Shown: positions 37,986 through 62,968, counted from the stretch's first letter. The stretch is 64,000 bases of DNA from Clostridia bacterium (GCA_036651815.1 JAVVXB010000007.1:14192-78191); one strand, 5' to 3'. Numbers and translations are program-made. The notes: generated by a model not told the origin, from the sequence alone.

Positions 37986-38000
37986 ATGAAAATTCTTCAT
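37986..38000. promoter_or_regulatory. LTTR-box-like dyad (T-N11-A) proximal to the LysR gene
   Basis: ATGAA-aattc-TTCAT is a perfect 5-5-5 inverted repeat, 63 nt upstream of the LysR ATG. Confidence 0.5.
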
Positions 38001-38198: not shown

Positions 38199-38262
38199 AT
38201 GAAAATAATTCATAAGAAAATGCAAAAGGGGTATAGAAATAGTCGGGCGGTATTTGTATAAT
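38199..38262 (+). promoter_or_regulatory. Second LTTR-box-like dyad plus aroD promoter -10
   Basis: ATGAA-aataa-TTCAT (38199-38213), then 31 nt, then GGGCGGTATTTGTATAAT with TATAAT at 38257-38262; 49 nt before the aroD ATG. Confidence 0.5.
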
Positions 38263-40563: not shown

Positions 40564-40575
40564 AGGGAGATTCTT

Positions 40576-41868: not shown

Positions 41869-41880
41869 GGAGGAATCATT

Positions 41881-43098: not shown

Positions 43099-44682
43099 AT
43101 GAAAAAACTAATCGTTCTCATCCTGTCGCTCATGATGGTTTGCATGAGCTTCGCAGGCTGCACGCAGCAGGCCCCAGAGCAAGGATCTACGCCCGAGGCG
43201 GGCGTTGGCGAAACAGTACCCGCAGAAGGCGAGACATCGTCGGCTGAACAGACCGCCGTCCGTAAGGATACCTTGGTCGTTGCGATTCAGGCCGAACCGC
43301 AGACCATGGACCCCTATGCTGCTTCCCATGATACTACGTTCGTCAGCTCCGAAACGATCTTCGAGTCCCTGCTGAAGTCCGTTGATGGCGAACTGACCCC
43401 TTGGCTCGCAGAGAGCTACGAAATCGTTGACGATCTGACCATCGTGTTCCATCTTCGCGACGACGTCTATTTCCATGACGGCAACAAGATGACGGCGGAC
43501 GACGTTGTATTCTCGCTCGGTTACGCCGCAACCAGCAGCTTTACGAGCACCATGTTCGGCGCAATCGACATCGAAAACACCAAAGCGCTGGATGAAAAAA
43601 CGGTAGAAGTCAAACTGAAGTACGCTTATGCACCTTTGATGGAGGGCATTGCAAGCTATCGCGGCGTTATCCTTAGCAAGGCTGCGTTCGAGTCCATGGG
43701 TGTAGACGCCTTCGGCCGTGCGCCTGTCGGTACCGGCCCCATGATGTTCAAAGACTGGATTAACGGCGACAGGATCGAACTTGTTGGCTTTGATAAATAC
43801 TGGGGCGAGAAGCCCATGTTTGACAACATGACCATCCGCATCATCCTCGAGGCTTCTTCGAGAAGCGTGGAGCTTGAAACCGGCGGCGTTGACATTGCTT
43901 TCCAGATTGCGCCCGTCGATTGGACGCGCCTTGCGGAGGGCCCGGACACGCAGATGCTCACCGGCAACTCCATGGGCATGACCTATCTCTGCTTCAACAA
44001 CTCCAATGAGCTTTATGGCAATGAACTCGTTCGTAAGGCGATTGCCTATGCCATCAACGTTGAAGCCGTCGCCAAGACTGCTTACCAGGGCCAGGCCGAT
44101 GCGGCCGACGGCTTTATCGCAAGGAGCATCCCGGGCTACAAGAAGGTCGGTCCCTGGGAATACAACCCCGAAAAGAGCAAGGAACTGCTGAAGGAAGCGG
44201 GCTACGAAAATGGCCTCGAAGTGAAGTTTGTTACCTTCCAACAGCAGTATTACAACGCCTGCATCGAGATCATCCAGAGCATGCTCAAGGAAGTTGGCAT
44301 CACCTGCACCATCGACATGGTTGACCTTGCCACCTTTACGTCCATGAACAATGCGGGTGAGCTGCCCATGACCGTTATGGCCAACAGCGCGTCCATTCCG
44401 GATCCCGCCAGCGCACTGGTTGCGTGGCCTCTGGCCAGAACCATCTCCCTGCGCCACAACGACCAGCACGTACAGGATCTGCTGGACAAGGGCGAGCGTA
44501 CCTACGCGCTGGAAGATCGTATTCCGATCTATGAGGAGTTGCAGGATTACCTTTGGGAGAAACTCTACCTGCTTCCGCTGGTCTATCCCATCACCGGTTA
44601 TGGTGCCCGTGCCAACATCAAAAACTTCAATTACGTACCCACCGGTATCCCCGATTTTGCGGGAATCGTATTTGCCGGTTAA
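43099..44682 (+). CDS. ABC transporter substrate-binding lipoprotein, family 5 (peptide/opine/nickel type)
   Basis: Lipobox SFAGC, GGAG RBS, and family-5 blocks LVVAIQAEPQTMDP, LAESYEIVDDLTIVFHLRDDVYFHDG. Confidence 0.85.
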   Translation: MKKLIVLILSLMMVCMSFAGCTQQAPEQGSTPEAGVGETVPAEGETSSAEQTAVRKDTLVVAIQAEPQTMDPYAASHDTTFVSSETIFESLLKSVDGELTPWLAESYEIVDDLTIVFHLRDDVYFHDGNKMTADDVVFSLGYAATSSFTSTMFGAIDIENTKALDEKTVEVKLKYAYAPLMEGIASYRGVILSKAAFESMGVDAFGRAPVGTGPMMFKDWINGDRIELVGFDKYWGEKPMFDNMTIRIILEASSRSVELETGGVDIAFQIAPVDWTRLAEGPDTQMLTGNSMGMTYLCFNNSNELYGNELVRKAIAYAINVEAVAKTAYQGQADAADGFIARSIPGYKKVGPWEYNPEKSKELLKEAGYENGLEVKFVTFQQQYYNACIEIIQSMLKEVGITCTIDMVDLATFTSMNNAGELPMTVMANSASIPDPASALVAWPLARTISLRHNDQHVQDLLDKGERTYALEDRIPIYEELQDYLWEKLYLLPLVYPITGYGARANIKNFNYVPTGIPDFAGIVFAG

Positions 44683-44703
44683 TCTGAACACTGTGTAATA
44701 CCC

Positions 44704-44741
44704 CCTGGATGTCCAACGCCTACGTGCGGTGGGCATCCAGG
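44704..44741 (+). other. Intercistronic stem-loop after the binding-protein gene
   Basis: 11-bp stem CCTGGATGTCC / GGGCATCCAGG (one G-U pair) with no U-tract. This is typical of mRNA-stabilising or partial-termination elements that raise SBP:permease ratios. Confidence 0.45.
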
Positions 44742-44802
44742 AGCTCTCTATTCCTGAGGCCGGGCTATCCGGCATCAAATCCCCCCCATAAGGAGTCAAG
44801 TG

Positions 44803-45819
44803 ATGCTACGATATATAGCAAAGAGAATACTTCTCATGATTCCGGTTCTGCTGGGCATTAGCTTTTTGATTTTCGTGCTGATGTTTTTTACGCCCGGCGA
44901 CCCGGCCCAGATGATTCTCGGTGATATGGCTGAGAAAGAGGAAGTCGAAGCCCTGCGTGAAGAGTTGGGCTTAAACGACAGCTTCTTCGAACGGTACTTT
45001 TCATATATGGGCGGCTTGCTTAAGGGCGACCTCGGCATATCCTACACAACAAAGCTGCCCGTATGGGACGAAATTGCGGCCCGTCTGCCGGTTACGGCCA
45101 AGGTTGCTTTTCTCGTCATTATTTTTGCTGTCCTTGTAGGCGTCCCAATCGGCATTCTTTCCGCGGTGCGCCAATATAGCGTCATCGACAGCATTACCCG
45201 CGTGTTTGCGCTGCTAGGCATCACGATGCCCAGCTTCTGGCTCGCGCTGCTGCTGGTATTGCTGTTTTCAGTAAAGCTGCAATGGTTGCCGGCGTCCGGA
45301 CTTTACGGCTGGCAATATTACATTATGCCGATAATAAGCATCAGCGCGGTTTCAGTGGCCACGATTACGCGTACGGCCCGCTCCAGCATGCTGGAGGTTG
45401 TGCGTCAGGATTATATTCGTACCGCAAGAGCCAAAGGACAAAGGGAAAGCGTGGTTCTGTTTAAGCATGCGCTTTTGAATGCACTGATTCCCATTTTAAC
45501 CATCGTAGGCATCCAGTTTGCCGGTGGGCTTGGCGGCGCCGTAGTCAACGAGCAAGTGTTTGCCATTCCCGGAATTGGCAAGTTGATGGTGGATGCGATC
45601 AAGGCGAGAAACTATCCGCTTGTGCAGGGTTCCGTGCTGGTGCTGGCCGTCCTGCAAAGCCTAGTGAACTTATCAATTGATATTTTGTACGCCTTTGTCG
45701 ATCCTCGTATTCGTTCCCAGTATAGCCGGGGCAAGAAGAAGAAGGACAAAAAAGAAGACGATAGCCAATCCCCTGAATACGGAAAGTTGCTTGCGGCAAA
45801 GGAGAGTGACCCGATATGA
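44803..45819 (+). CDS. Dpp/Opp-type ABC transporter permease (DppB-like)
   Basis: MLRYIAKRILLMIPVLLGISFLIF N-terminus, EAA-loop region DYIRTARAKG, AGGAG RBS. Confidence 0.9.
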   Translation: MLRYIAKRILLMIPVLLGISFLIFVLMFFTPGDPAQMILGDMAEKEEVEALREELGLNDSFFERYFSYMGGLLKGDLGISYTTKLPVWDEIAARLPVTAKVAFLVIIFAVLVGVPIGILSAVRQYSVIDSITRVFALLGITMPSFWLALLLVLLFSVKLQWLPASGLYGWQYYIMPIISISAVSVATITRTARSSMLEVVRQDYIRTARAKGQRESVVLFKHALLNALIPILTIVGIQFAGGLGGAVVNEQVFAIPGIGKLMVDAIKARNYPLVQGSVLVLAVLQSLVNLSIDILYAFVDPRIRSQYSRGKKKKDKKEDDSQSPEYGKLLAAKESDPI

Positions 45820-46697
45820 AGAAAAGAAACGAGGCAGGATTGGGTCATTTTAAAAAGCGCAGTCTGTTTCAGGAAACCTGGCAGAGACTTTCGAGGAACA
45901 GCCTAGCGATGGGCGGCCTCGCCATATTGGTGCTGCTGGTGCTGGTGGCGATCTTTGCCGATGTAATCGCTCCATTTCCCTATGACAAGCAGGATTATAA
46001 TGCACTGCTGCAAACGCCTTCCATGGCGCACCTCATGGGTACGGATGAATATGGCCGCGATATTTTAAGCCGCGTTATCTACGGCAGCCGAATTTCCCTC
46101 TACGTTGGGTTCATTTCTCTTGCATGCGGTGCTTTTGTCGGCTGTGTGGTGGGTTCCATCGCAGGATTTTTTGGCGGTATGACCGACAACGTGATTATGC
46201 GCATCTGTGACGTTTTGCACGGCATTCCGAGAATCGTGCTGGCGATTGCCATCGCTTCCACCATCGGTCCGGGTATTACAAGTGCGCTGATTGCTGTCGC
46301 GGTGAGCTCTGTGCCAAACTTTGCCCGCGTTGTGCGCGCAGCGACCATGACGGTTCGCGATCAGGAGTATGTGGAGGCGTCCCAGTCGCTTGGCGCCAGC
46401 AACGCCCGCATCATCGTCCGCCATATTTTTCCCAATATTCTTGCACCCATCATTGTGCAGGCCACTTTGGGTATCGGCACCTCCATTTTGCTATGCGCTT
46501 CTTTGAGCTTTCTTGGCCTCGGCGTACAGCCGCCTACACCGGAATGGGGCAGTATGCTTTCCAATGCGAGAAGCTTTATGCGTGACTATGCCTACATGGT
46601 CATTTCACCGGGCATCGCCATTATGCTGACCGTCCTTGCACTAAACCTGTTTGGCGATGGCTTGCGTGATGCGCTTGACCCCAAACTGAAGAGATAA
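45816..46697 (+). CDS. Dpp/Opp-type ABC transporter permease (DppC-like)
   Basis: HLMGTDEYGRDILSRVIYG block, EYVEASQSLGAS EAA loop. Overlaps the upstream gene by 4 nt. Confidence 0.9.
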   Translation: MKKRNEAGLGHFKKRSLFQETWQRLSRNSLAMGGLAILVLLVLVAIFADVIAPFPYDKQDYNALLQTPSMAHLMGTDEYGRDILSRVIYGSRISLYVGFISLACGAFVGCVVGSIAGFFGGMTDNVIMRICDVLHGIPRIVLAIAIASTIGPGITSALIAVAVSSVPNFARVVRAATMTVRDQEYVEASQSLGASNARIIVRHIFPNILAPIIVQATLGIGTSILLCASLSFLGLGVQPPTPEWGSMLSNARSFMRDYAYMVISPGIAIMLTVLALNLFGDGLRDALDPKLKR

Positions 46698-46710
46698 GGG
46701 GAGCGACACT

Positions 46711-47709
46711 ATGGAGAATATTAATAAACTTCTGGACATCAAGGATCTGTCCATTCACTATTTCACTGAAACCGGCGTTGTTCGGGCGGTAAACAACATT
46801 GATTTTGAGCTGAACCGTGGCGAGACGCTCGGTCTCGTCGGTGAAACGGGTGCGGGCAAGACTACCACGGCACTCGGCATTATGGGCCTGATTCCCGATC
46901 CGCCGGGCAAGGTGGTAAACGGGGAGATTCTTTTCGAAGGGCAAAACTTGCTCAAAGCCAGCAAGGCGCAGCTTCGCCATCACTGCGGCAAGGATCTTTC
47001 CATGATTTTTCAGGACCCAATGACCTCGCTAAACCCGATTTTGACCGTCGGAGACCAGATCTCCGAGGTAATCCGGTTGCACGAGAAGCTTTCCCGTAAG
47101 GACGCAACCCGCAAGGCTGCCGAGATATTGGAGATGGTGGGCATTCCCGCTGAACGGATGAGCGAGTATCCGCATCAGTTTTCCGGCGGCATGAAGCAAA
47201 GGGTCGTGATCGCCATCGCACTTGCCTGCAACCCAAAACTGATCATTGCGGACGAGCCGACTACCGCGCTGGATGTCACGATCCAAGCACAGGTACTCGA
47301 ACTTATGCACAATTTGCAGCAAAAGCTCAGCACGGCAATGCTACTGATTACCCACGATCTTGGCGTTGTTGCGGACAACTGTGACCGGGTCGCCATTATG
47401 TATGCGGGACAGATTGTGGAGATGGGATCCCTCAAAGATGTGTACGATGAGACGAAACATCCCTATACGAAGGGCCTCTTTGCATCGCTTCCGAGTCTGT
47501 CAACGAAGACGAAGCGCCTTGTTCCCATCAAGGGCCTGATGCCGGATCCCACGGATCTGCCATCCGGCTGTCCGTTTCATCCCCGCTGCCCCAGCTGCAT
47601 GGAAGCGTGCAAGCTGCGTATGCCTGAAAACAATGAGGTCGCGCCCGGACACTATGTGCGGTGCCTACTCTATGAAGCGTGCTCGACGGTTGGAGGTCAA
47701 GATGTCTAA
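46711..47709 (+). CDS. Dpp/Opp-type ABC transporter ATP-binding protein (DppD-like)
   Basis: Walker [37 protein letters not shown]-terminal HPYTKGL...GCPFHPRCP. Confidence 0.92.
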
Positions 47710-48664
47710 CACATTGATCGAAGTTCAAAACTTAAAAAAGTATTTTAAAACGCCTCATGGCCTGCTCCATGCGGTTGATGACGTGAGTTTTTCCATTGAG
47801 CGCGGGCAGACGCTGGGCGTGGTCGGAGAGTCGGGCTGTGGAAAATCAACGCTTGGGCGCGTCATCATCAAACTTCTTGACGCGACTGACGGCAAGATTA
47901 TCTTTGAAGGCGAAGATATTACAAAGCAGGAACACTCCCTTGCGCAGCGCCGCAAAATGCAGATGATTTTCCAGGATCCATTTTCCTCGTTGAATCCGCG
48001 TATGTCCGTAAGCCAAATTATTGCCGAACCGCTGCAGATTCACCATGTATTCAAGAGCCAGGACGAGCTGAACGAACGCATTCGGGATCTCATGTCCACG
48101 GTGGGTTTAGCCGAGCGATTTGCAAACGCCTATCCGCATGAGTTGGACGGCGGCCGGAGGCAGCGGATCGGCATCGCCCGCGCGCTTGCGCTTGAACCTG
48201 AGTTTATCGTGTGCGATGAGCCCGTTTCCGCGCTGGATGTGTCGATTCAGGCACAGATTCTCAACCTCATGCAGGACCTGCAGGAGGAGCGGAATATTAC
48301 ATACATGTTCATTACCCACGACATGTCGGTAGTGAAGCATATTTCCAACGACATCGTCGTGATGTACCTTGGCAACATGGTGGAGAAGGCCGGAGCGGAT
48401 GAGCTATTCGAGCATACCCTACATCCATACTCGAAGGCGCTGCTCTCTGCGATTCCGGAGCCAAATATTCATAACAAGAAAAAACGAACCATCCTGCGGG
48501 GCGAAATCACATCCCCGATCGATCCGCCGGCAGGATGCCGCTTTGCCGTGCGCTGCGCCTATGCCACAGAGGAGTGTTTCCACCGCACGCCGGTGCTGGA
48601 AGAAGTTCTGCCGGATCATTATGTAGCTTGTAACCATGTCCGAAAAATTAATGGACTGGGCTAA
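47702..48664 (+). CDS. Dpp/Opp-type ABC transporter ATP-binding protein (DppF-like)
   Basis: Walker A GESGCGKST, LDGGRRQRIGIARAL, VCDEPVSALD, C-terminal HPYSKALL...GCRFAVRC. ATG 47702 overlaps the upstream gene. Confidence 0.92.
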   Translation: MSNTLIEVQNLKKYFKTPHGLLHAVDDVSFSIERGQTLGVVGESGCGKSTLGRVIIKLLDATDGKIIFEGEDITKQEHSLAQRRKMQMIFQDPFSSLNPRMSVSQIIAEPLQIHHVFKSQDELNERIRDLMSTVGLAERFANAYPHELDGGRRQRIGIARALALEPEFIVCDEPVSALDVSIQAQILNLMQDLQEERNITYMFITHDMSVVKHISNDIVVMYLGNMVEKAGADELFEHTLHPYSKALLSAIPEPNIHNKKKRTILRGEITSPIDPPAGCRFAVRCAYATEECFHRTPVLEEVLPDHYVACNHVRKINGLG

Positions 48665-48673
48665 GGAGAATTG

Positions 48674-50044
48674 ATGGAAATGAGTTATTTTCGGACGCTT
48701 GCTGAACATTTTTCGCAATGCCGGATGTCGGATATCGATGATGAAACGCTGCATCAGGTGCGGCGTTCGCTTGTCAATTACTTAGGCGGAAGCGTCTATA
48801 CGGCTTCGCACGATAGCTGCGCACAGCTGCTTGCGATGATCCGCACCATGGACACCGGCGGCAAGTCGACTGTCTGGTCGGAGGCGCTGCCCGCAGCGCC
48901 GATGATCGCGGCGTTTTCCAATGCGGCGCGCCTATCGAGTCTTGAGCTCAATGACGGCACAAAGGCCTCGGCGCATCCTGGCATCTATGTATGGTCCAGC
49001 ACCCTTGCGACCTATCAGCAGTACGGTGGCAGCGTGGAGGATGTTATACGAGCGGTGGTCTTTGGCTACGATGTTTGCACGCGTATGGCGATGCTGTCCA
49101 TTGAACGTATCCTTGAGCTGGGCTTGCACAACCCTGGGTTTGTGGGTGGCCTCGGCGCAGTTGCCGCCGCGGGTCTTCTGCGCGGGTTGTCGGTTGACGA
49201 GCTCTGCAATGCATTCGGTATCGCTGCATCCCTGCTGCCGCTCTGCCCCTTTGTCAGCTTTGTGGAGGGATCGGATTCCAAGGATCTCTATGGCGGATGG
49301 GGCGCTTACCTTGGTCTGTTTGCAGTGGAGGCCGCTTCTCGCGGGCTGACCGGTCCTGAGCATGTACTCAAGGGGATAAAGGCGCTCGATACCATTTTTC
49401 AAGGTGACAGCGGCAAGGAGATCGAACCTGGCAACCCCTATTTGATCAACTGGTTGTCCATCAAGGAATATCCGGCCTGCTTTGCCGTCAGTCCAGCGGT
49501 CAATGCGGTGCTGGCGCTGCAAAGAAAGCATGCCATCGACCCGGAGCAAATCGAATCGGTTGTTGTGGACACCTATCCATATTCGTTCGATCTCAACCAG
49601 GGCGTTGGTCGCAGTCCGAACGTTACTTCCGGAAAGCTTTCCCTCTACTATACTGTTGCCGTTGTCCTGATGGACGGCCAGCTTTCGCCGGATGCATTTG
49701 CTGATGAAACGTTGCATGATACGCGGTATCAGGCTCTTCGTGACAAGATCACGACCAAGCGGCACGATGCCTATGGCAACGGTCCGACCGGTATCCGCGG
49801 CTGCGTGATCGAGATCCGGATGAAGGATGGACAAGTGCTTGTAGAGGAATTTAACGCTACCGAAAACAAGAAGATCTATTCCGATGAAATGCTGTATGAG
49901 AAATACTGCGGCTTGACAAAGGATGTGCTCACGCCGCCGCAGCAAAAGGAATTGTATGACTTTGCCATGCAGATGGACGTTAAGCAAGACCTTGATTCCA
50001 TTTTACACTTACTGCATACGCTGCCAAAAGTGCATAAAAACTGA
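48674..50044 (+). CDS. MmgE/PrpD-family protein (2-methylcitrate dehydratase superfamily)
   Basis: Family-typical N-terminus (FRTLAEHFSQ...DIDDETLHQVRRSLVNYLG), about 455 aa, blocks SSLELNDG, GLHNPGFVGGLGA. AAGGAG RBS 5 nt before ATG 48674. Confidence 0.75.
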   Translation: MEMSYFRTLAEHFSQCRMSDIDDETLHQVRRSLVNYLGGSVYTASHDSCAQLLAMIRTMDTGGKSTVWSEALPAAPMIAAFSNAARLSSLELNDGTKASAHPGIYVWSSTLATYQQYGGSVEDVIRAVVFGYDVCTRMAMLSIERILELGLHNPGFVGGLGAVAAAGLLRGLSVDELCNAFGIAASLLPLCPFVSFVEGSDSKDLYGGWGAYLGLFAVEAASRGLTGPEHVLKGIKALDTIFQGDSGKEIEPGNPYLINWLSIKEYPACFAVSPAVNAVLALQRKHAIDPEQIESVVVDTYPYSFDLNQGVGRSPNVTSGKLSLYYTVAVVLMDGQLSPDAFADETLHDTRYQALRDKITTKRHDAYGNGPTGIRGCVIEIRMKDGQVLVEEFNATENKKIYSDEMLYEKYCGLTKDVLTPPQQKELYDFAMQMDVKQDLDSILHLLHTLPKVHKN

Positions 50045-50058
50045 GATTTGTGGGAGAT

Positions 50059-51285
50059 ATGAAGATACAGGTCATACAAGAGCAATTGCAAACGCCCGTC
50101 TTGGGGGAGTATGATGTCATTATCGCCGGCGGCGGCGTTGCGGGCGTCTGCGCCGCTGTGGCGGCTCGGCGCGCCGGGGTGCAGCGCGTGCTTTTGCTTG
50201 AAAAGGGGATTCTCTTTGGCGGACTTGCTACGCAGGGATTGATCGCACTCTATGAGCCCATCTGCGACGGACAGGGGCGCAAAGTTACCTATGGCATGGG
50301 TGCGGAACTGATGCAGCTTTGCATGAAGTACGGACCGGATGTGTTGCCAGAGCAGTGGCGGAGCGATCCGGATGCCGCGCAGGGTGATAACCAGCGGTAT
50401 AAGACATTCTTCTCCCCGACAATGTTTGCCATGGCATTGGACGAATTTGTGCTGGATGCCGGGGTGGAGGTTCTGTTCGATACGCAGGTTGTGCGCCCGG
50501 TGATGGATGGCGTAAGGTGTATAGGCCTTGTTGTGGAGAACAAAAACGGACGTGGCATGTACAAGGCAAAAGCCATCGTAGATACCACGGGTGATGCCGA
50601 CATCTGTTGCCGCGCCGGCGTTCCCTGTGTAACGGGTCAGAACTATATGACGTTTATGGCATACCGGGCGGACATGGAAGCGGCCGGGAGCGCCATAGTC
50701 GAAAATAATATTCTTAAGGCGCGAAAATGGACGTTGCTGGGCGCTGGGCCTCGTGGCAACGGCCATCCGGAAAATGTTCCGCTAATCGCGGGAACAACGG
50801 CCAAAGAAGTCACAAAATATGTGCTTGACGGACGAAGAATGATGTTGGAGAGCATGCGCGGCGAGGATCGTTTTGCAAGAGATATCAGTATGTTGCCCAC
50901 GATGCCGCAGCTGCGAACAACGCGCCACATACGGGGCGCATATGCGTTACAGGAATTGGATGTGTGCACGGCCCAGACGGATTCTGTAGGTGTTGTTGCG
51001 GACTTCCAGACGCCGGGAGAATGGTACGAGTTACCCTATCGTGCACTCTACGATCCCGCGTACCCGAACCTTTGGACTGCAGGACGAACCGCTGCCGCAG
51101 AGGGCTGGGCATGGAGTGCCATACGCGTCATTCCCGGCGCGGCCTGCTCCGGGCAGGCCGTCGGCATTGCAGCAGCGCTGTGCGTCCGGCATGGCCTTGC
51201 GGCTTATGACCTGCCATACGCAATGCTGCTCGACGTTATCACGGCTGAGGGTGGGCGCGTACATGCGGGACAGGCATGCCGGTAG
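50059..51285 (+). CDS. FAD-dependent oxidoreductase (FAD_oxidored-type Rossmann)
   Basis: YDVIIAGGGVAGVCAAVAARRAGVQRVLLLEKG dinucleotide fold and DTTGDADI block. The start (ATG 50059 or GTG 50050) is uncertain. Confidence 0.75.
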   Translation: MKIQVIQEQLQTPVLGEYDVIIAGGGVAGVCAAVAARRAGVQRVLLLEKGILFGGLATQGLIALYEPICDGQGRKVTYGMGAELMQLCMKYGPDVLPEQWRSDPDAAQGDNQRYKTFFSPTMFAMALDEFVLDAGVEVLFDTQVVRPVMDGVRCIGLVVENKNGRGMYKAKAIVDTTGDADICCRAGVPCVTGQNYMTFMAYRADMEAAGSAIVENNILKARKWTLLGAGPRGNGHPENVPLIAGTTAKEVTKYVLDGRRMMLESMRGEDRFARDISMLPTMPQLRTTRHIRGAYALQELDVCTAQTDSVGVVADFQTPGEWYELPYRALYDPAYPNLWTAGRTAAAEGWAWSAIRVIPGAACSGQAVGIAAALCVRHGLAAYDLPYAMLLDVITAEGGRVHAGQACR

Positions 51286-51322
51286 AAAGACTTTACGTAT
51301 GACAAGGATGGGGGAATGGACT

Positions 51323-52597: not shown

Positions 52598-52661
52598 TGC
52601 GCCAAACGGCGGGAATCCACCCGCGCTGATAAGCGGCCGGGCAGAGAAGGAGACAAAACGG

Positions 52662-53855
52662 TTGCGCTACGATTTTGACCAGATTATAGACAGAACGCAT
52701 ACGAATTCTTCCAAGTGGGACAATGTGGGCGCGCGCCTCGGCAACGCCAATGCGATTCCCATGTGGCTTGCGGATGCGGACTTTGTTTCTCCCGAGCCGG
52801 TGAAAAAAATGCTGGAGGAGCGCGTGCGCCACGGCATCTATGGGTATCCATACCGTACGGACGATTTTCAAGCGGCGACCAAACGGTGGATTCTCAAACA
52901 ACACCATATCGAATTACAGGAAAACTGGATGGTCTTTACCACCGGCGTCGTGCCGATTATCTACACGGCCATTGAGGCCTTTACGGAAGCGGGTGATGAA
53001 ATCATCATTCAGCAACCGGTATATCACCCATTTATTCACGCGATACAAGACCAGAATCGCATTATCTCCAACAATGCCCTGCTCTATGTGGATGGCCGCT
53101 ATACGATCGATTTCGATGACCTTGCGCGGCGTGCGGCGAGCAAAAAAGCAAAGCTGATGGTTTTCTGCAACCCTCATAACCCGGTGGGCCGTTGTTGGAG
53201 CAGGGAGGAAGTTGACCGGGTCTCCCAAATATGCCTGGATAATCAAGTATTGCTCATCAGCGACGAAATTCATTCCGACCTGATGCTCTTTGGACACCGG
53301 CACAGCCCTGCCGCAATTGGGAACGATGGCTTTGAGCGCAATACCATATTGTGCTACGCACCTAGCAAAACCTTTAATATCGCCGGGCTCAGGGGCTCTT
53401 GCGCCGTGATTGTGAACGCCGAAACCCGGCAACGTTTTTCCTACCAGCTGCGCTGTAACGACAGCGTACAGGAAAGCCTGTTTTCCATCCCGGCATATGT
53501 GACTGCCTACACCATGTGTGACGATTATCTCGAACAGATGTTGCCCTATCTCGAGGGTAACATACGGTATCTCGATGCATACCTAAAGGAGCATATGGCG
53601 CGAATTCGACTCGTGCGGCCGGAGGCCACCTATCTTATGTGGCTCGATTGCGCGGGGCTAGGACTTGAAAAGGAAGCCCTGTACGACTTTATCATCAACC
53701 GTTGTCTGGTGGGCGTGAGCCGTGGCGATGGCTTTGGCGCCGAGGGCGGATCGTTTGTACGCATGAATATTGCCTGTCCACGTATAACGCTTGAAAGGGC
53801 ATTGAATCAAATGCGCAACGAATACGAAAAGTGCTTTCGGGAAGTGGATGAATGA
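52662..53855 (+). CDS. PatB/MalY-type PLP-dependent C-S lyase (cystathionine beta-lyase-like aminotransferase fold)
   Basis: YDFDQIIDRTHTNSSKWD N-terminus is typical of MalY/PatB. Also NPHNPVGR and SKTFNIAGLR (PLP Lys). TTG 52662 lies 9 nt after AAGGAG. Confidence 0.8.
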   Translation: MRYDFDQIIDRTHTNSSKWDNVGARLGNANAIPMWLADADFVSPEPVKKMLEERVRHGIYGYPYRTDDFQAATKRWILKQHHIELQENWMVFTTGVVPIIYTAIEAFTEAGDEIIIQQPVYHPFIHAIQDQNRIISNNALLYVDGRYTIDFDDLARRAASKKAKLMVFCNPHNPVGRCWSREEVDRVSQICLDNQVLLISDEIHSDLMLFGHRHSPAAIGNDGFERNTILCYAPSKTFNIAGLRGSCAVIVNAETRQRFSYQLRCNDSVQESLFSIPAYVTAYTMCDDYLEQMLPYLEGNIRYLDAYLKEHMARIRLVRPEATYLMWLDCAGLGLEKEALYDFIINRCLVGVSRGDGFGAEGGSFVRMNIACPRITLERALNQMRNEYEKCFREVDE

Positions 53856-54766
53856 ACAATATCGCCCCTCACAATTCGACGCTGAAGGGATATCTGCTGC
53901 TGCTCTCGACCTTCTTTATCTGGGGCAGCGTCTATGTTGTTGGCAAGTATTCGATGGGTGTTTTATCGCCGGTGACCATAGCCGGGGGGCGATATTTGAT
54001 TGCATTTATCGTGATGATGGCCGTCGGTGGCAAGCGTTACAAGGTGAAGATTGACAAGGCGGACTGGAAGTATTTCTTCATCATTGGTGTGCTGGGACAC
54101 TACCTGCAGACCATTGTGAACCTGTTTGGGGTGCAGCTGATCGGTGCGTCTACGGCATCGCTGATCAACTCTATGAATCCGGTGAGCATCAGCATCGTTG
54201 CTGCCATTTTGTTGCACGAGCGAATTGATGCAGTGCAGATTAGTTGTATCGTTCTCTCCGTTATTGGCGCGGTTGTTATTACAAGCGGTGCGGATGGCAA
54301 CGGACAGGTTATGGGCGTACTGCTCTCTGTCAGCGCGATTATCCTCTGGGCAGTTGCTTCCGTGAGCCTACGAAAGATGGCTGCAAAATATGGCGTCATG
54401 CCTGTCACCATTTATGGCATCATCATTAGCCTTATGTTCTATATACCAACCATGGCGGTGGACATAATTCATCAAGGCGGGCTACATTTGACGTGGGGGG
54501 CTGCCGGCGCGGTACTGTATCTGGGCATCTTTGGGACAGCGTTGGCCGGATATCTATGGACTAAGGCGCTTTCTATGCTGGAAGCCAGCGTATGCTCCGT
54601 ATTTTATCCGCTACAGGCACTGTTTTCCGCCTTGCTCGGTGCGGCATTTCTGCACGAACGATTTCAATCAACATTCTATATTGGTGCGGCGATAATCGCC
54701 GTGAGCGTGGCTGTCAACTGCTTGCACCACGACAAAACGAAACAAGGACAGACTGTGCTGAGGTGA
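53852..54766 (+). CDS. DMT-superfamily (EamA) transporter
   Basis: Ten TM spans, two EamA halves (FIWGSVYVVGK ...; ILWAVASVSLRK ...). 4-nt overlap with the upstream gene. Confidence 0.8.
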   Translation: MNNIAPHNSTLKGYLLLLSTFFIWGSVYVVGKYSMGVLSPVTIAGGRYLIAFIVMMAVGGKRYKVKIDKADWKYFFIIGVLGHYLQTIVNLFGVQLIGASTASLINSMNPVSISIVAAILLHERIDAVQISCIVLSVIGAVVITSGADGNGQVMGVLLSVSAIILWAVASVSLRKMAAKYGVMPVTIYGIIISLMFYIPTMAVDIIHQGGLHLTWGAAGAVLYLGIFGTALAGYLWTKALSMLEASVCSVFYPLQALFSALLGAAFLHERFQSTFYIGAAIIAVSVAVNCLHHDKTKQGQTVLR

Positions 54767-54770
54767 CATA

Positions 54771-55721
54771 ATGAACATTCCATCCAAAGTAACTTTGTGC
54801 GAGGTCGGACTCCGTGACGGACTGCAAAACGAAAAGACCTTGCTTGCCACAGACGGAAAGCTGGAGCTTGCAAGGGCCATTATCGCGGCTGGCTGCAGGG
54901 CCATAGAACTCGGCTCCTTTGTAAGTCCCAAATCCGTGCCGCAGATGGCGGACACAGATGCGCTCTTTTCAGCGCTTGGCGGAACGCCGGGTGTTGAACT
55001 GCGTGCGCTGATTGCCAATCCGCGCGGCGTGGAGCGGGCCGCCGCCTGTGGCTGCAAGAAGGTGAAGCTAAACGTTTCAGCAAGCCGTGCGCACAATCTC
55101 GCGAATCTTCATATGACACCGGAGGAGAGCGTTTCGCGGTTTCAGGAAAGCTGCGTACTGGCCAAGACGTACGGGATTGGTATTTCAGGCTCGATCTCTA
55201 TGCCGTTTGGTTCGCCTTGGGAGAAAGAAATTCTCGTCCAAGACGTGCTGCAGATCATCGAGGCGTACCTCGATGTGGGCGTGAATGAAATCTCTCTTTC
55301 CGACACCTCGGGTATGGCGGTTCCGACGCAAGTTTATTCGCTTTGCGAACTTGTGCAGCGGACATATCCGTCCGTGCGCTGGTGGTTGCATTTTCACAAT
55401 ACACGCGGGGCGGCAATGGCCAATATCCTTGCCGCGCTGCAGGCGGGCATTACGCGATTCGATACCTCTTTTGCGGGATTGGGCGGTTGCCCGTTCGTTC
55501 CCGGCGCTGCAGGCAATATTGCGACCGAGGACGTTGTGCATATGCTGCAAGAGATGGGTGTCGAAACGGGAATTGCGCTCGATCAGACCATAAAACTTGC
55601 AAGAAGACTCAAAGAGCTCGTTGGACATGAAACGGACAGCTACTTGCTTCGCGCAGGCTGTTCGCGGGATCTAAAACTGGAGCTGCCGGTCAGCCAATCC
55701 CATGCTGCGGTAGCAAAGTAA
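54771..55721 (+). CDS. HMG-CoA-lyase-like (HMGL/DRE-TIM) aldolase-lyase
   Basis: VTLCEVGLRDGLQNE N-terminal signature, ISLSDTSGMA, and HFHNTRGAAMANILAAL metal-binding block. Confidence 0.8.
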   Translation: MNIPSKVTLCEVGLRDGLQNEKTLLATDGKLELARAIIAAGCRAIELGSFVSPKSVPQMADTDALFSALGGTPGVELRALIANPRGVERAAACGCKKVKLNVSASRAHNLANLHMTPEESVSRFQESCVLAKTYGIGISGSISMPFGSPWEKEILVQDVLQIIEAYLDVGVNEISLSDTSGMAVPTQVYSLCELVQRTYPSVRWWLHFHNTRGAAMANILAALQAGITRFDTSFAGLGGCPFVPGAAGNIATEDVVHMLQEMGVETGIALDQTIKLARRLKELVGHETDSYLLRAGCSRDLKLELPVSQSHAAVAK

Positions 55722-55742
55722 AGCAGCGTTCAGGAGGAAAGC

Positions 55743-57563
55743 ATGAAAAAACTTGTATCTGAGCAGATGGTGGATTATCTCGAACGGAGAGGAATCGAAT
55801 ACGTATTTGGTCTTTGTGGGCATACGGTGATCGGCTTTCTCGACGCGCTCTCCAAGAGCGAGAAAATTCACTATATTTCCGTTCGACATGAGCAGATTGC
55901 CGCTACGGCGGCTGATGGTTACGCACGCCTGACCAAGAAGGCGTCCGTGCTCATGTGTCACTTGGGACCAGGAATCACCAACGTAGTCACCGGCGTTGCC
56001 AACGCCGCCTTCGATTCCATCCCAATGGTTATTATCGCTGGCGACGTGCCTAGCTACTATTTCGGTCGTCATCCCCATCAGGAAGTAAACATGCATTGTG
56101 ATGGGTCCCAGTACGAAATTCTCAAACCCGTTGTCAAGCGTGCATGGCGCATTGACGATCCCGAGGCACTGCCGGATATATTGGACAAGGCCTTTCGCAT
56201 GGCCGAGAGTGGGCGTCCCGGCCCTGTGCTCATCGATGTGCCGATGGACATGTTTTCGAGGGAGATTGACACCGATTTGTTTGACCGCACCTACAGGGAC
56301 AGTCATGAAACGATCAAGCCCGCACTGGCACCGGCGGCGGCCGCCGCGATTGCTAAGCGGCTTATGGAGGCAACGCAACCCGTGATTCACGCGGGTGGCG
56401 GTATCCTGCTTTCCGGCGCAAGCAAAGAGTTGCAAGCGCTTGCGGAGTTCTTGGAAATCCCCGTGTCGCGTACGCTGATGGGACAAGGGTGCATCTCTGA
56501 TACGCACCCGCTGATGGCCGGGCAAACCGGCTTCTGGGGTCTCGCCTACACGCATAGGCTGACTACCAATGCAGATGTGATTCTGGCGCTGGGCACCCGC
56601 TTTGCAGAGGCAGACAGCTCGAGCTGGTACCCCGGCGTGACGTTCGACCCCAGAAAAACGACTTTTTTGCAAATTGACATCGATCCGAATGAAATTGGTC
56701 GGAATTATCCGGTGGAGATCGGAGCGGTGGCGGATTTGAAGCTGGCGCTCGCTCAAATACTGGAAGAGGCACGCAAACTAAAGCCCGCCGGTATGAAGCG
56801 GCCCACTGTGATCGCGGAAATCGCCCGTGAACGGGCGGCGTTCCGGGCGGAGAACGAGGCAATTTCAAACGATGGCCGTTATCCCATGACGCCACAACGT
56901 ATTTTAAAAGATATAAAGGCAGTTCTTCCGGAGGATGCCATCTTATTTACGGATGTCGGTTGGAACAAAAATGGCGTCGCCCAGCAGTTTGACGTGACGG
57001 TGCCCGGTACGATTCACCATTCGTCTGGCCTTGCGACCATGGGCTTTGGCGCGTCCGCCCTATTGGGCGGCAAGCTTGCTGCACCGGACAAGGTTGTGCT
57101 GGCGCTTGTGGGCGACGGCGGCTTCGGTACGAATCCATCCTGCATGGCAACTGCGGTGGAGCAGGGAATCAACGTTATTTGGGTGGTCATGAACAACTCC
57201 GCTTTCGGCACCATTGCGGGACTGGAGTATGCGAACTATCAAACTCGCTTCGGTACGGAGTTTCACACGCCTGACGGTAACCGGTATTCTCCCGATTGGG
57301 CAGAGGTTGCCCGTGCGTATGGTGTGGAAGCGGTGCACATTGAGTCGGCAGAGGCATTCCGACCCGCGCTTGAAAGAGCGGTGGCATCAGACCGACCGTA
57401 CCTGCTGGATGTTCCAATGGAGAACATTGCGGTGCCGACGCCTGGCTGCTGGAATATCAACGATATCTATACGCCCAAGGAAAACGTGATCGCGGGAAAG
57501 GTTGTACGGGACCAAGAAGGCGCCTTTATTCCCCCCAATCACTTGGCCTCCCATAAAAGATAA
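55743..57563 (+). CDS. Thiamine-diphosphate-dependent enzyme (acetolactate synthase / sulfoacetaldehyde acetyltransferase superfamily)
   Basis: N-terminal Pyr domain (YVFGLCGHTVIGFLDAL...GPGITNVVTGVANA), central domain, and the ThDP motif GDGGFGTNPSCMATAVEQGINVIWVVMNN. Confidence 0.8.
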   Translation: MKKLVSEQMVDYLERRGIEYVFGLCGHTVIGFLDALSKSEKIHYISVRHEQIAATAADGYARLTKKASVLMCHLGPGITNVVTGVANAAFDSIPMVIIAGDVPSYYFGRHPHQEVNMHCDGSQYEILKPVVKRAWRIDDPEALPDILDKAFRMAESGRPGPVLIDVPMDMFSREIDTDLFDRTYRDSHETIKPALAPAAAAAIAKRLMEATQPVIHAGGGILLSGASKELQALAEFLEIPVSRTLMGQGCISDTHPLMAGQTGFWGLAYTHRLTTNADVILALGTRFAEADSSSWYPGVTFDPRKTTFLQIDIDPNEIGRNYPVEIGAVADLKLALAQILEEARKLKPAGMKRPTVIAEIARERAAFRAENEAISNDGRYPMTPQRILKDIKAVLPEDAILFTDVGWNKNGVAQQFDVTVPGTIHHSSGLATMGFGASALLGGKLAAPDKVVLALVGDGGFGTNPSCMATAVEQGINVIWVVMNNSAFGTIAGLEYANYQTRFGTEFHTPDGNRYSPDWAEVARAYGVEAVHIESAEAFRPALERAVASDRPYLLDVPMENIAVPTPGCWNINDIYTPKENVIAGKVVRDQEGAFIPPNHLASHKR

Positions 57564-57596
57564 GGCGAAAGAACGTATGAAGGAGAGAATTGCGAA

Positions 57597-58433
57597 ATGA
57601 GGAAATACTCGCTTGCTTACCTGACGGTGCCAGGCACGGATCCTGTTAACCAGATTCGCATTGCGGCGGAAGCGGGTTATGATTCTGTGAGCCTGCGCAC
57701 TATCCCCATGCAACTGCCTGGGGAGCCGGATTTTTTGCTGGACAAGGATGTGGCGCTGTTTACCGCAACGAGGAATGCTCTGCAGGAATATGGCATGTCG
57801 CTGATGGATATCGAGCTTGCTCGCATCCGGCCGGACTTGGACGTGAGCTCGTATGCGCCTGCCTTTGAGAAGGCGGCGGAGCTTGGAGCAACCGACGTAT
57901 TAGGCAGCGTCTGGACTCGGGACAAGGTTTACTATATGGAAGCCGCGGCGAAGGGTGCCGACTTGGCTAAGCAATTCGGACTGTGCTACAACATCGAGTT
58001 TCTGCCATGGGCGGGCGTGCGCTCCTTGCAGGAGGCCATCACCCTTGTGGACGAATCCCAGCGGGACAACCTATATATCATGGTTGATACGCTGCATGCG
58101 GGCCGCTCTGGCATGACCGCAAACGAACTCAAGCGAACCGACAAGAAATACTTCCGGTTTATGCACCTTTGCGATGGCCCGGCAGGTCCAGATGGAGATC
58201 CGGTTCTCGACGATATCAAGGATAAGTCCATGTTGTCCTGCGCACGGGAAGGCCGCCTGTATGTTGGCGAAGGGATCATGGACATAGCCGGCATGGTGAG
58301 CGCCGTTCCGTCGGTGCCTTTGTCCATTGAACTGCCTAATCTGAAGGAGATGGAAAAGCGGGGCGCGGCGGGGCATGCAAAACGCTGCCTTGAGACGGCC
58401 AAGGCTTATTTCGCCGCAAGGGGCATTGAATAA
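57597..58433 (+). CDS. Xylose-isomerase-like TIM-barrel protein (sugar phosphate isomerase/epimerase family)
   Basis: Length about 278 aa, AAGGAGAG RBS, alternating beta/alpha pattern with conserved H/D/E positions (MVDTLHA, MHLCDG, LSIELP). Confidence 0.65.
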   Translation: MRKYSLAYLTVPGTDPVNQIRIAAEAGYDSVSLRTIPMQLPGEPDFLLDKDVALFTATRNALQEYGMSLMDIELARIRPDLDVSSYAPAFEKAAELGATDVLGSVWTRDKVYYMEAAAKGADLAKQFGLCYNIEFLPWAGVRSLQEAITLVDESQRDNLYIMVDTLHAGRSGMTANELKRTDKKYFRFMHLCDGPAGPDGDPVLDDIKDKSMLSCAREGRLYVGEGIMDIAGMVSAVPSVPLSIELPNLKEMEKRGAAGHAKRCLETAKAYFAARGIE

Positions 58434-58505
58434 ACGATTGACGCATTGCGGGTGTATAGCTCGTGCAGCGTTATAAAATCTACAGAATATAAGGAGCATA
58501 GCACC

Positions 58506-59927
58506 ATGGCAGACAGAGAGATTACAGCGGAAGAACAACAATTGATGGACGAAATGTTCAAGAAGGCAGATGCGGCCGCGAAGATTATTGAGACCTATGA
58601 CCAAGAACGCGTGGACAAGTTGATTCAGGCGGTTGCGTGGAGCGTGGCAAACCTTCGCACCTGGAAGCCGCTGGCATATGAGGCGGTTGCGGAAACCGGC
58701 CTTGGCGATCCGATTGGAAAGACCAACAAGCGCAACAAGGTTCGGGGCATTCTTCGGGATTCACTGCGCGCAAAGAGTGTGGGCGCAATTGAGGAGATCC
58801 CCGAAAAAGGCCTTACCAAGTACGCAAAGCCGGTCGGCATCATCGCCTCCCTCGTTCCGACAACAAATCCCGTTTTAACACCTGTAGGACAGGCCGTGTA
58901 CGGCATCAAAGCGCGCGACGTTATGATTTTTTCACCCCATCCCCGTGCGAAGGCTGTCACAAAGAAGGCCATCGACATCATGCGTGAAACGCTGGTGCGG
59001 GAAGGTGCGCCTGCGGACATTCTCCAGTGCATTGAGCAACCGAGCATTCCGCTGACCAAGGAGCTTATGAATCGCGCAAATCTCGTTATCGCGACGGGCG
59101 GACGGCCTATGGTGAAATCCGCTTACAGCTCCGGTACCCCTGCATACGGCTCTGGCGCAGGTAATTCCACCATGATCATCGACGAGACTGCTGACGTCAA
59201 GGAAGCGGCCATGAACACACGCATTAGCAAGTACAGCGACTTTGGCTCTGGCTGCTCCTGCGACGGCAACCTTATCATCCATGGTTCCATATATGATGCC
59301 ATGGTACAGGCGCTCAAGGATGAGGGCGGTTACCTGGCCAATCCAGAGCAGGCGGAAGCCCTCAAGAAGGTGATGTGGGATGAGAGCGGCCACCGTCTAC
59401 CGGACACCGTTGCGGTTTCGGCCCAGGCGCTTGCACAGGCCGCCGGTTTTTCCATTGATTCTTCCTGCAAGTTTATCATGGTGGATGGTGAAAACAAGAT
59501 CGGCAAGGAGTACTTTTTCTCTTCGGAGAAGTTGACGACGCTGCTGGCGCTTTTCCGCTATGAAGGCGAGTTTGAGAACGCTCTGAATATGATGCGTGCC
59601 ATCTATAACGTTGGTGGCAAGGGCCACTCCTGCGGCATCTACTCTTTTGATGATTCGCATATTCATCGCCTAGCGATGGCGGCGCCTGTCAGCCGCATCA
59701 TGGTGCGTCAGCCCCAGAACAAGGCGAACGCCGGTTCCTTTACCAACGGTATGCCGATGACCTCATCTATGGGTTGCGGCACCTGGGGCGGCAATATCGT
59801 TTCTGAAAACATCTGTCTCAAGCACTATATGAACACGACGTGGGTAGCACGTACCATTCTTGAGGATAAGCCCTCCGATGAGGAGCTATTTGGCGAATAC
59901 TATGATCCGGCGTTGGATCTCGAGTAA
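58506..59927 (+). CDS. CoA-acylating aldehyde dehydrogenase (EutE/PduP-like ALDH family)
   Basis: AAGGAG RBS; ALDH blocks VPTTNPV, ATGGRPMVKSAYSSGTPAYGSGAGN, and a catalytic-Cys region FGSGCSCDGN. It lacks the long NAD-ALDH C-terminus. Confidence 0.75.
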   Translation: MADREITAEEQQLMDEMFKKADAAAKIIETYDQERVDKLIQAVAWSVANLRTWKPLAYEAVAETGLGDPIGKTNKRNKVRGILRDSLRAKSVGAIEEIPEKGLTKYAKPVGIIASLVPTTNPVLTPVGQAVYGIKARDVMIFSPHPRAKAVTKKAIDIMRETLVREGAPADILQCIEQPSIPLTKELMNRANLVIATGGRPMVKSAYSSGTPAYGSGAGNSTMIIDETADVKEAAMNTRISKYSDFGSGCSCDGNLIIHGSIYDAMVQALKDEGGYLANPEQAEALKKVMWDESGHRLPDTVAVSAQALAQAAGFSIDSSCKFIMVDGENKIGKEYFFSSEKLTTLLALFRYEGEFENALNMMRAIYNVGGKGHSCGIYSFDDSHIHRLAMAAPVSRIMVRQPQNKANAGSFTNGMPMTSSMGCGTWGGNIVSENICLKHYMNTTWVARTILEDKPSDEELFGEYYDPALDLE

Positions 59928-59979: not shown

Positions 59980-60007
59980 AAGCCATCCGTTTTTATGCGG
60001 GTGGCTT
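59980..60007 (+). terminator. Probable terminator of the long co-directional array
   Basis: 10-bp stem AAGCCATCCG / CGGGTGGCTT (one G-U pair), 8-nt loop, weak U-tract (CGTTCGTT). Confidence 0.45.
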
Positions 60008-61496: not shown

Positions 61497-61660
61497 ATCG
61501 ATTTGATAAGTAAGATTCACACCTATACTCCAAAATACCAATATTTTATTATATTCTAGCAAGAATCATTGATGTAAACAATAGAAAAGGGACTTATACT
61601 GTAATTGCAGTATACCACGAAATGTATATTCATATCACAATATTGATCGGGGGAAGTCGT

Positions 61661-62920: not shown

Positions 62921-62968
62921 GCACGCGAATATTCCGCAACTAGAATAAGAAGCAACGGTGGTTATGAT

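Follow-up and report, generated by a model that had tools for sequence, protein, structure and literature searches.

Gene content and limits of the unit

The DNA analyzed here is a 64,000-nucleotide stretch from a Clostridia bacterium (GCA_036651815.1, JAVVXB010000007.1:14192-78191), called the window below; all positions refer to its whole length. Within it, positions 43099-59927 had been described in a sequence-only reading as a co-directional array of fourteen importer and enzyme genes. We re-examined this array, refining the starts of open reading frames (ORFs) by the position of the ribosome-binding site and by homologue length, and assigning families with Pfam and NCBIfam, using the curated cut-offs of the latter. 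Compared genomes and loci carry G and L labels, and the window's own genome is G000. The closest named record to the window is that of Christensenella sp. UBA1685.

All fourteen ORFs are located on the plus strand and fall into the families that had been named for them (ORF list, Pfam and NCBIfam). Refined gaps between them are -8 to 72 nt, plus one of 120 nt after the binding-protein gene, where the hairpin reported earlier is also present. A consensus scan returned 17 promoter-like sites within the array versus 17.2 in shuffled sequence and 22 terminator-like sites versus 20.5, no excess of either. The proposed left edge at 43099 had to be given up: the aroC stop codon lies at 43059, 39 nt upstream, so 43099 is no unit boundary, and it cuts off four aro genes that travel with the modules in relatives. 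These genes (aroD, aroE-like, aroA and aroC; 38311-43059) are co-directional with the array and lie behind a divergent LysR gene. Because 43099 is not a boundary and the four aro genes lie upstream of it, the unit is predicted to comprise 18 genes over about 21.6 kb (38311-59927, from aroD to an acylating aldehyde dehydrogenase gene) under control of the LysR protein. The fourteen-gene array, operon-like in arrangement, would form the downstream three-quarters of this super-operon. Its features are:

36997-37923, minus strand: LysR-type regulator, divergent from aroD (Pfam HTH_1 and LysR_substrate)
37986-38000 and 38199-38213: two LTTR-box-like dyads, ATGAA-N5-TTCAT, in the LysR-aroD intergenic region
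38311-39075, plus strand: type I 3-dehydroquinate dehydratase AroD (Pfam DHquinase_I; TIGR01093, 222 against a cut-off of 139)
39694-40563, plus strand: AroE-like shikimate/quinate dehydrogenase, of the block B type described below (AroE2; TIGR00507, 209.6 against a cut-off of 200.2, marginal)
40576-41868, plus strand: EPSP synthase AroA (TIGR01356, 389 against a cut-off of 287)
41881-43059, plus strand: chorismate synthase AroC, widespread 392-aa clostridial type (NF003793, 377 against a cut-off of 321)
43099-48664, plus strand: Opp/Dpp/Nik-type ABC importer, five components (Pfam), as follows
43099-44682, plus strand: family-5 binding lipoprotein, SBP5 (Pfam)
44704-44741, plus strand: intercistronic hairpin after the binding-protein gene (15 bp; RNA fold of 44683-44802, -42.4 kcal/mol, z = -2.15)
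44803-45819, plus strand: permease 1 (Pfam)
45816-46697, plus strand: permease 2 (Pfam)
46711-47709, plus strand: ATPase 1 (Pfam)
47702-48664, plus strand: ATPase 2 (Pfam)
48674-50044, plus strand: MmgE/PrpD-family protein of a small uncharacterised subfamily (Pfam MmgE_PrpD)
50050-51285, plus strand: FAD-dependent oxidoreductase (Pfam PF12831)
51323-52597, plus strand: SDH_alpha/YhaM-like protein, cysteine-desulfidase family (Pfam SDH_alpha, 188 bits)
52662-53855, plus strand: PatB-family, pyridoxal phosphate-dependent C-S lyase (TIGR04350, 419 against a cut-off of 340)
53852-54766, plus strand: EamA/DMT transporter (Pfam EamA)
54771-55721, plus strand: HMG-CoA-lyase-like DRE-TIM acyl-CoA lyase (NF004283, 305 against a cut-off of 246)
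55743-57563, plus strand: thiamine diphosphate (ThDP) enzyme of the acetolactate-synthase fold, putative ring-cleaving step (Pfam TPP_enzyme_N/M/C)
57597-58433, plus strand: xylose-isomerase-like TIM barrel, putative dehydratase acting on 3-dehydroquinate (Pfam AP_endonuc_2)
58506-59927, plus strand: CoA-acylating aldehyde dehydrogenase (best solved relative CoA-acylating succinate-semialdehyde dehydrogenase 8cei, 285 bits)
About 59980-60007, plus strand: terminator-like hairpin closing the unit after the acylating aldehyde dehydrogenase gene (11-bp stem, z = -3.0)

The two dyads are the only matches to ATGAA-N5-TTCAT in the window, where 0.17 would be expected by chance, and both lie in the LysR-aroD spacer. 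Five related loci (L009, L062, L094, L097 and L116) have the same motif a short distance upstream of an aroE-like or TIM-barrel gene, and LysR homologues at 71-82% identity keep the equivalent position in G007, a genome of the same family as G000, and in loci of the G042 type. At the other end of the unit, none of 200 shuffles folded as well as the closing hairpin. The G+C content of 38311-59927 is 53.8%, versus a genome mean of 49.3% (standard deviation 2.0 for 20-kb windows); the top 0.8% of 20-kb genome windows reach 54%, and the array falls among these, which is compatible with horizontal acquisition. Beyond the unit, an AT-rich, ORF-free spacer of 0.7 kb precedes a convergent AraC-family regulator and L-rhamnose isomerase (RhaA) operon at 60651-64000.

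One explanation for this arrangement, to which we would give even weight against all others combined, is that the LysR-controlled 18-gene super-operon is a composite of three blocks that move independently in other genomes: the importer with its accessory enzymes (block A), a module of aro-type and carbon-chain enzymes (block B), and aroA with aroC (block S), which would share AroD and the AroE-like protein with block B.

A conserved module and its predicted chemistry

By sequence comparison, block B comprises AroD, the AroE-like dehydrogenase, EamA, the HMG-CoA-lyase-like enzyme, the ThDP enzyme, the TIM barrel and the CoA-acylating aldehyde dehydrogenase, and the window holds a copy of this module, which recurs in dozens of anaerobe loci, together with a LysR gene. 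We fetched eighty metagenome loci carrying an orthologue of the ThDP enzyme, annotated them by tblastn, and computed shares on the 46 loci of at least 12 kb. An acylating aldehyde dehydrogenase gene is found near the ThDP orthologue in 89% of these loci, LysR in 83%, the HMG-CoA-lyase-like gene in 76%, the TIM barrel in 72%, the AroE-like gene in 67% and TRAP transporter genes in 54-59%; aroD is present in 41%, Opp-type ABC genes in 22% and aroA in 17%. EamA homologues (34-48% identity) adjoin the ThDP/TRAP genes in 26%. Five unrelated Bacillota contigs, Oscillospiraceae LTW-04 and Anoxynatronum sibiricum among them, have the order LysR, HMGL-Aldedh-ThDP-AP_endonuc_2-shikimate-DH-like-DctQMP, where HMGL denotes the HMG-CoA-lyase-like gene. 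Across many Bacillota the ThDP enzyme keeps 75-85% identity, and five module enzymes of the window (the HMG-CoA-lyase-like, aldehyde dehydrogenase, ThDP, TIM-barrel and AroE-like proteins) share 40-87% identity with module genes elsewhere. We regard it as nearly certain that block B is an independent conserved unit.

In the window itself, the module order is broken by aroA, aroC and block A; the divergent LysR gene is present, and the cluster contains no DctPQM (TRAP) genes, the Opp-type ABC and EamA genes being there instead. The window's AroE-like protein is 48% identical to the AroE-like proteins of operons that combine the HMG-CoA-lyase-like, aldehyde dehydrogenase, ThDP, TIM-barrel and TRAP genes versus 38% to a biosynthetic AroE; its gene is of the module type. 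A truncated state was seen at L022 (G051:C89), where the ThDP orthologue at 1151-2124 consists of two overlapping tblastn pieces covering residues 15-339 only; the G051 module also lacks a TIM-barrel gene and is probably decaying.

Among solved proteins, the HMG-CoA-lyase-like enzyme scores 181-238 bits against HMG-CoA lyases (best two, 238 and 219) and 59-71 bits against homocitrate synthases. The closest solved relatives of the ThDP enzyme are BbmA (292 bits), acetolactate synthase (ALS, 249 bits) and cyclohexane-1,2-dione hydrolase (157 bits), and every NCBIfam equivalog scores below its cut-off. For the TIM barrel, a sequence search of solved proteins gave no useful relative and no NCBIfam model matched; its AlphaFold2 model (pLDDT 94) is most similar in Foldseek to IolI, Lmo2234 and the dehydroshikimate dehydratase QuiC1 (5hmq), with template-modeling (TM) scores of 0.73-0.81, the QuiC1 match (E 3e-14, TM 0.73-0.75, 19-20% identity) holding at the level of the fold only.

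Because an AroE-family dehydrogenase and a dehydroquinase occur with a carboxylate importer under LysR, we favour uptake and catabolism of quinate/shikimate-type compounds, and an acid of this type is probably the substrate of block B. The exact route is put forward more tentatively, at somewhat under even confidence, as we infer each of its five steps together with the substrate and the direction. In the first step, the AroE-like enzyme would oxidise quinate to 3-dehydroquinate (DHQ); shikimate would be oxidised to dehydroshikimate, which AroD would then hydrate to DHQ. The TIM barrel would next dehydrate DHQ to a cyclic 3,4-diketone, by the chemistry of IolE or dehydroshikimate dehydratase, and the ThDP enzyme, acting like IolD or cyclohexane-1,2-dione hydrolase, would open this diketone by hydrolysis and leave an aldehyde-tricarboxylate skeleton. 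The acylating aldehyde dehydrogenase would convert this skeleton to a homocitryl-CoA-like thioester, a step that its nearest relative fits, as succinate-semialdehyde is an anionic aldehyde. Finally, the HMG-CoA-lyase-like enzyme would split the thioester into acetyl-CoA and 2-oxoglutarate. The bookkeeping of the five steps balances (quinate + H2O -> acetate + 2-oxoglutarate + 4[H]), with one use for each enzyme. Literature searches found no description of the block B gene set or of such a pathway, nor any characterised operon with the content of the whole array, so the earlier statement that it matches no nameable catabolic operon stands.

The proposed route resembles three known systems in part. 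The catabolism of myo-inositol likewise proceeds by NAD-dependent oxidation (IolG), TIM-barrel dehydration to a 1,2-diketone (IolE), ThDP-dependent ring opening (IolD) and a CoA-acylating dehydrogenase (IolA), and the window's TIM-barrel model fits IolI best, at fold level only. The window's dehydrogenase, however, belongs to the AroE family and not to Gfo/Idh/MocA, the NCBIfam matches listed (for the ThDP enzyme, the 25 best of 52) include neither an IolD nor an IolE model, and the predicted route acts on a carboxylate-bearing substrate and ends in an HMG-CoA-lyase-like step, with no kinase or aldolase. With the aerobic quinate/shikimate pathway (QuiA/QsuD, QuiB/AroD and QuiC/QsuB, followed by protocatechuate cleavage) the window shares an AroE-family/quinate dehydrogenase and a dehydroquinase, as well as a TIM barrel structurally like the QuiC1 dehydratase domain (TM about 0.75). 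It lacks dioxygenase and beta-ketoadipate genes, though, its hosts are strict anaerobes, and the ThDP, aldehyde dehydrogenase and lyase steps would imply ring cleavage without aromatisation. The window's lyase, lastly, resembles the HMG-CoA lyases and homocitrate synthases (the DRE-TIM metallolyases) in the scores given above, whereas no leucine or ketone-body genes occur in the window and its substrate would be a 3-carboxy analogue, yielding 2-oxoglutarate rather than acetoacetate.

Block A, the aro genes and competing readings

Block A is, by sequence comparison, a rare importer-plus-enzyme block that recurs beside aroA, aroC or aroD. Among solved proteins, its binding protein is most similar to the agropinic-acid binder AgaA (184 bits), with GsiB/YliB, AccA, DppA and NikA next, and it falls below all NCBIfam substrate equivalogs (GsiB, 183 against 594; NikA, 176 against 600; DppA, 145 against 1005; CntA, 108 against 800). 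The PrpD-family subfamily contains 55 proteins at E<1e-40 among 8000 candidates scored. Its solved relatives are weak (at most 61 bits: the B. subtilis IRG1 homologue, IDS epimerase and cis-aconitate decarboxylase), and it does not reach the 2-methylcitrate dehydratase PrpD equivalogs (NF006943, 39 against 575; TIGR02330, 31 against 458). The YhaM-like protein matches solved L-cysteine desulfidase 9he0 over its full length (98 bits) and no NCBIfam model. For the PF12831 flavoprotein, the sequence search of solved proteins found no relative; a structure-based assignment was also attempted and set aside, as the AlphaFold2 model (pLDDT 66) returned generic flavoprotein folds at TM of at most 0.42, which is uninformative.

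The family-5 ABC system is the constant partner of the PrpD-family gene, and the two are found beside aro genes or module B in six arrangements, which spread over both deep clades of the PrpD tree. Three of these are the window, G007 and the G042 type. In the fourth, at L121, the order is DHQase_I-EPSPS-AroC-ABC-flavoprotein-PrpD-chorismate-binding enzyme (EPSPS, EPSP synthase); in the fifth, at L032, it is PatB-ABC-flavoprotein-PrpD-EPSPS-LacI-M20, headed by a PatB homologue 47% identical to that of the window; and in the sixth, at L051, three PrpD genes with flavoprotein and ABC genes lie next to module B. Opp-type ABC genes also adjoin module B in L047 and L048, in loci that lack PrpD. Because of the six arrangements, their spread over both PrpD clades and the ABC genes beside module B, block A may well be functionally coupled to the aro genes or to module B, and we consider the odds of such a metabolic link to be evenly balanced. 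Block A, the only importer of the window cluster apart from EamA, would then bring in and trim a hydroaromatic or polycarboxylate compound, possibly one conjugated to an amino acid. At L121:10001-12759, a gene for a chorismate-binding enzyme (460 aa) overlaps the stop codon of the PrpD-family gene, which suggests translational coupling.

The linkage of these genes is kept in relatives although their order changes. G007 has the gene order of the window, including aroD, aroE, aroA and aroC, with a pair each of PrpD paralogues and flavoproteins and, in addition, an M20 peptidase, whereas G041, G042 and six human-gut metagenome contigs carry LysR, ALDH-aroD-HMGL-ThDP, LysR and aroE-aroA-importer-PrpD-flavoprotein-YhaM-(M20)-PatB-EamA-TIM barrel (ALDH, aldehyde dehydrogenase). 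In these contigs, as in G041, G042 and L037, aroD is located between the acylating aldehyde dehydrogenase and HMG-CoA-lyase-like genes. In G042 (L010:13985-15190) and G007 (L018:369-1535), the YhaM-like and PatB genes flank the M20 peptidase gene, which is absent from the window and G041. As for the synteny of the array as a whole, which the sequence-only reading had proposed to test, the modules are conserved, but the array splits into blocks that have different partners elsewhere. Gene content, modularity and co-occurrence can be read directly from these loci.

AroD, AroE, AroA and AroC each reach an NCBIfam equivalog cut-off. AroA is 44-56% identical to EPSP synthases encoded beside PrpD/ABC genes (L032 and L121), beside module B (L037) and in an ordinary biosynthetic operon (L039). 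AroC shares 70-88% identity with many Bacillota proteins, one of which comes from an ordinary aroA-aroC-aroB-aroQ operon; both AroA and AroC belong to a type that is widespread among clostridia and is also found in ordinary biosynthetic operons. The window's own genome, 96.3% complete, shows no match to DAHP synthase, DHQ synthase or shikimate kinase of either type (PF00793, PF01474, PF01761, PF01959, PF01202 and TIGR01920), and thus does not hold the complete seven-step shikimate set. Its sole weak SKI match is a cytidylate kinase, and the idea of a hidden shikimate kinase was rejected on this search. Since none of these three enzymes was found, aroA and aroC would most simply serve to salvage imported hydroaromatics: AroA and AroC, sharing AroD and the AroE-like enzyme with block B, would divert part of the imported compound to chorismate. 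A search of the same genome found no TrpE/PabB/MenF-family enzyme, prephenate dehydratase or prephenate dehydrogenase, and it holds a lone 115-aa chorismate mutase (C17:50688-51035, minus strand). The aro set is in this respect an orphan segment from the middle of the pathway, in a genome that shows no obvious use for chorismate or prephenate.

In G007, aroG, aroB and aroK were likewise not found, and a prephenate dehydratase is present. In other family members that have aroC and lack aroB, the aroA-aroC-aroK clusters are conventional and share only 25-35% identity with the window genes. The idea that the PrpD-family protein substitutes for prephenate dehydratase was rejected, as many aroC-positive relatives without that enzyme also lack PrpD and G007 has both. 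A 618-nt ORF-free spacer (39076-39693) separates aroD from aroE-like in the window, the same pair being 36 nt apart in G007; at protein and DNA level the spacer resembles none of the fetched loci and nothing else in the own genome, and this comparison gave no sign of a decayed gene such as aroK. Another hydroaromatic-looking cluster was seen on a metagenome contig labelled Lachnospiraceae (L038:8935-21179), with LysR and AroC-EPSPS-PF12831 flavoprotein (501 aa)-DctQMP-DHQase_I-two Zn-dependent alcohol dehydrogenases-unknown-DHQase_I; within these limits, genes of the AroE family and for shikimate kinase are absent.

Several observations weigh against the composite as set out so far. By sequence, the ThDP enzyme is closer to carboligases (BbmA, ALS and glyoxylate carboligase) than to cyclohexane-1,2-dione hydrolase, retro-acyloin cleavage of DHQ by this enzyme would be equally legal chemistry, and an IolD or IolE model was missing from the NCBIfam matches listed, as noted above. 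All four full-fusion genomes are fairly close relatives (70-88% identity), and part of the linkage may be inherited. The salvage branch is incomplete without a shikimate kinase, which leaves the kinase step unaccounted for, and only the chorismate mutase is there to use chorismate in a genome without the TrpE/PabB-family and prephenate enzymes. PrpD and ABC genes occur with no aro gene within 10 kb in L030 and L031; the window's flavoprotein shares only 23-33% identity with those of L121, L032 and L038, and the flavoproteins of the different clusters are not orthologous; and PatB, the YhaM-like protein and, in relatives, the M20 enzyme play no part in the proposed chemistry.

The alternative that best survives takes up these last points. 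Block A could be a self-contained system for another nutrient that landed in a hydroaromatic operon, with a promoter but no metabolites in common; candidate nutrients would be S-(2-succino)cysteine or another S-substituted cysteine, opines or aminopolycarboxylates, and polycarboxylates of the tricarballylate/aconitate type. We judge this unlikely, at perhaps half the weight given to the composite. It would explain why PrpD and ABC genes stand alone in L030 and L031, and it is in keeping with the raised G+C content, the opine binder nearest to the binding protein, the B. subtilis IRG1 homologue and IDS epimerase as closest solved relatives of the PrpD-family protein, PatB scoring above its family cut-off beside a protein that resembles cysteine desulfidase, and the M20 amidohydrolase that joins block A in G042 and G007. 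The yxe operon of B. subtilis (snaA-yxeKLMNOPQ), which for S-(2-succino)cysteine combines an M20 enzyme and a PrpD-family protein with an ABC system, offers a parallel in its importer, its M20 amidohydrolase (found in the window's relatives), its PrpD-family protein and its sulfur-amino-acid context. However, the PrpD similarity, as to IDS epimerase, amounts to only about 60 bits, the window has no YxeK-type monooxygenase or acetyltransferase, and its transporter is of the family-5 Opp type and not a family-3 amino-acid system. Against accretion also stand the six or more arrangements, from both deep PrpD clades, that place PrpD/ABC genes next to aroA, aroC, aroD or module B, the Opp-type ABC genes that adjoin module B without PrpD, and the G007 cluster, in which this ABC system is the only transporter.

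A second alternative reverses the direction of block B. The lyase, aldehyde dehydrogenase, ThDP enzyme and TIM barrel would run synthetically, by a Claisen-type condensation, thioester reduction and ThDP-dependent acyloin ring closure to the 3-keto-4-hydroxy motif of DHQ, and would feed AroD, AroE, AroA and AroC as a third route to dehydroquinate. The carboligase-like sequence of the ThDP enzyme agrees with this, as do G000 and G007, which lack aroG and aroB and keep aroD, aroE-like, aroA and aroC inside the cluster, and L037, where aroE-like, aroA, aroC, ALDH, aroD, HMGL, ThDP and TIM-barrel genes form one operon with no transporter. Nevertheless, we consider the anabolic direction improbable, and a DAHP-independent, possibly kinase-independent route to DHQ or chorismate, perhaps with the PrpD-family protein and the flavoprotein, is equally doubtful, whether instead of catabolism or besides it. 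The required C5 aldehyde source is not encoded and shikimate kinase would still be missing. A phylogenetic profile in which the module replaces aroG and aroB also failed, as six other genomes of the family have aroC and lack both aroB and the module. The catabolic direction is favoured because importers (usually TRAP) and LysR accompany the module, because Anoxynatronum sibiricum (G100) has the module in addition to a full canonical pathway with aroG, aroB and aroK, and because G051 and G024 have module genes, yet aroC was not found there.

The sequence-only reading had itself proposed uptake and stepwise breakdown of a conjugated organic acid or amino-acid derivative, possibly sulfur-containing, by all fourteen genes; on this view the ThDP enzyme and aldehyde dehydrogenase would act on sulfoacetaldehyde-like intermediates. 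The close, co-directional spacing, the presence of PatB and the YhaM-like protein, and the SauS/Xsc families to which the two enzymes belong (SauS being the best NCBIfam match of the aldehyde dehydrogenase, and Xsc also being matched by the ThDP enzyme) speak for this. Yet SauS scores 450 against a cut-off of 600 and Xsc models 305 against 620 and 284 against 676, the ALS models outscore Xsc, no sulfite-handling genes are present, and a sulfoacetaldehyde or sulfonate role of the last genes was rejected, their conserved partners being aro-type genes. Because of synteny, the single route is strongly disfavoured and, in our estimate, very unlikely: dozens of loci that have no PatB, YhaM or PrpD carry the last five genes together with AroE-like, AroD and TRAP genes, and the unit reaches upstream into the aro genes. 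What survives of this proposal is the operon-like importer with its enzymes, the last five genes being a separate module; a sulfur-containing substrate is possible for block A only (PatB and YhaM-like), as is the opine/aminopolycarboxylate alternative (PrpD-family and AgaA-like binding protein).

Least likely of all, in our view, is a scheme of biosynthesis and re-uptake, in which chorismate from the aro genes would go into a small metabolite or metallophore, possibly with cysteine in it, that EamA exports and the Nik/Cnt-like ABC system takes up again: chorismate-binding genes do adjoin PrpD/ABC genes in L121, L051 and L037, the binding protein has NikA-like and CntA-like similarity, and the L031 set lies among metal-efflux, Fur and CsoR-type genes, but the window's own genome has no chorismate-binding enzyme, its regulator appears to be LysR and not a metal sensor, ligase, nonribosomal peptide synthetase and opine-dehydrogenase genes are not present, and module B would be left without a role.

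Possible implications for anaerobic hydroaromatic use

Quinate and shikimate, two acids abundant in plants, find their way into the gut and into anoxic sediments. Brune and Schink reportedly carried out physiological work in 1992 on fermenting anaerobes that degrade these acids without oxygen and without aromatisation, and the mechanism is said to have stayed open since. The block B gene set, widely conserved and apparently undescribed, most likely serves to ring-open plant quinate or shikimate in the absence of oxygen, and the window offers a five-enzyme candidate route for anaerobic hydroaromatic ring cleavage, conserved and with defined intermediates. The small PrpD-family branch, linked together with an opine-binder-like ABC importer to aro genes, provides an entry point for assigning its function. 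The module occurs as a variant fused to aroA and aroC in Christensenellales-like gut bacteria without the early shikimate pathway, and this suggests that these carriers may depend on dietary hydroaromatics for their chorismate.

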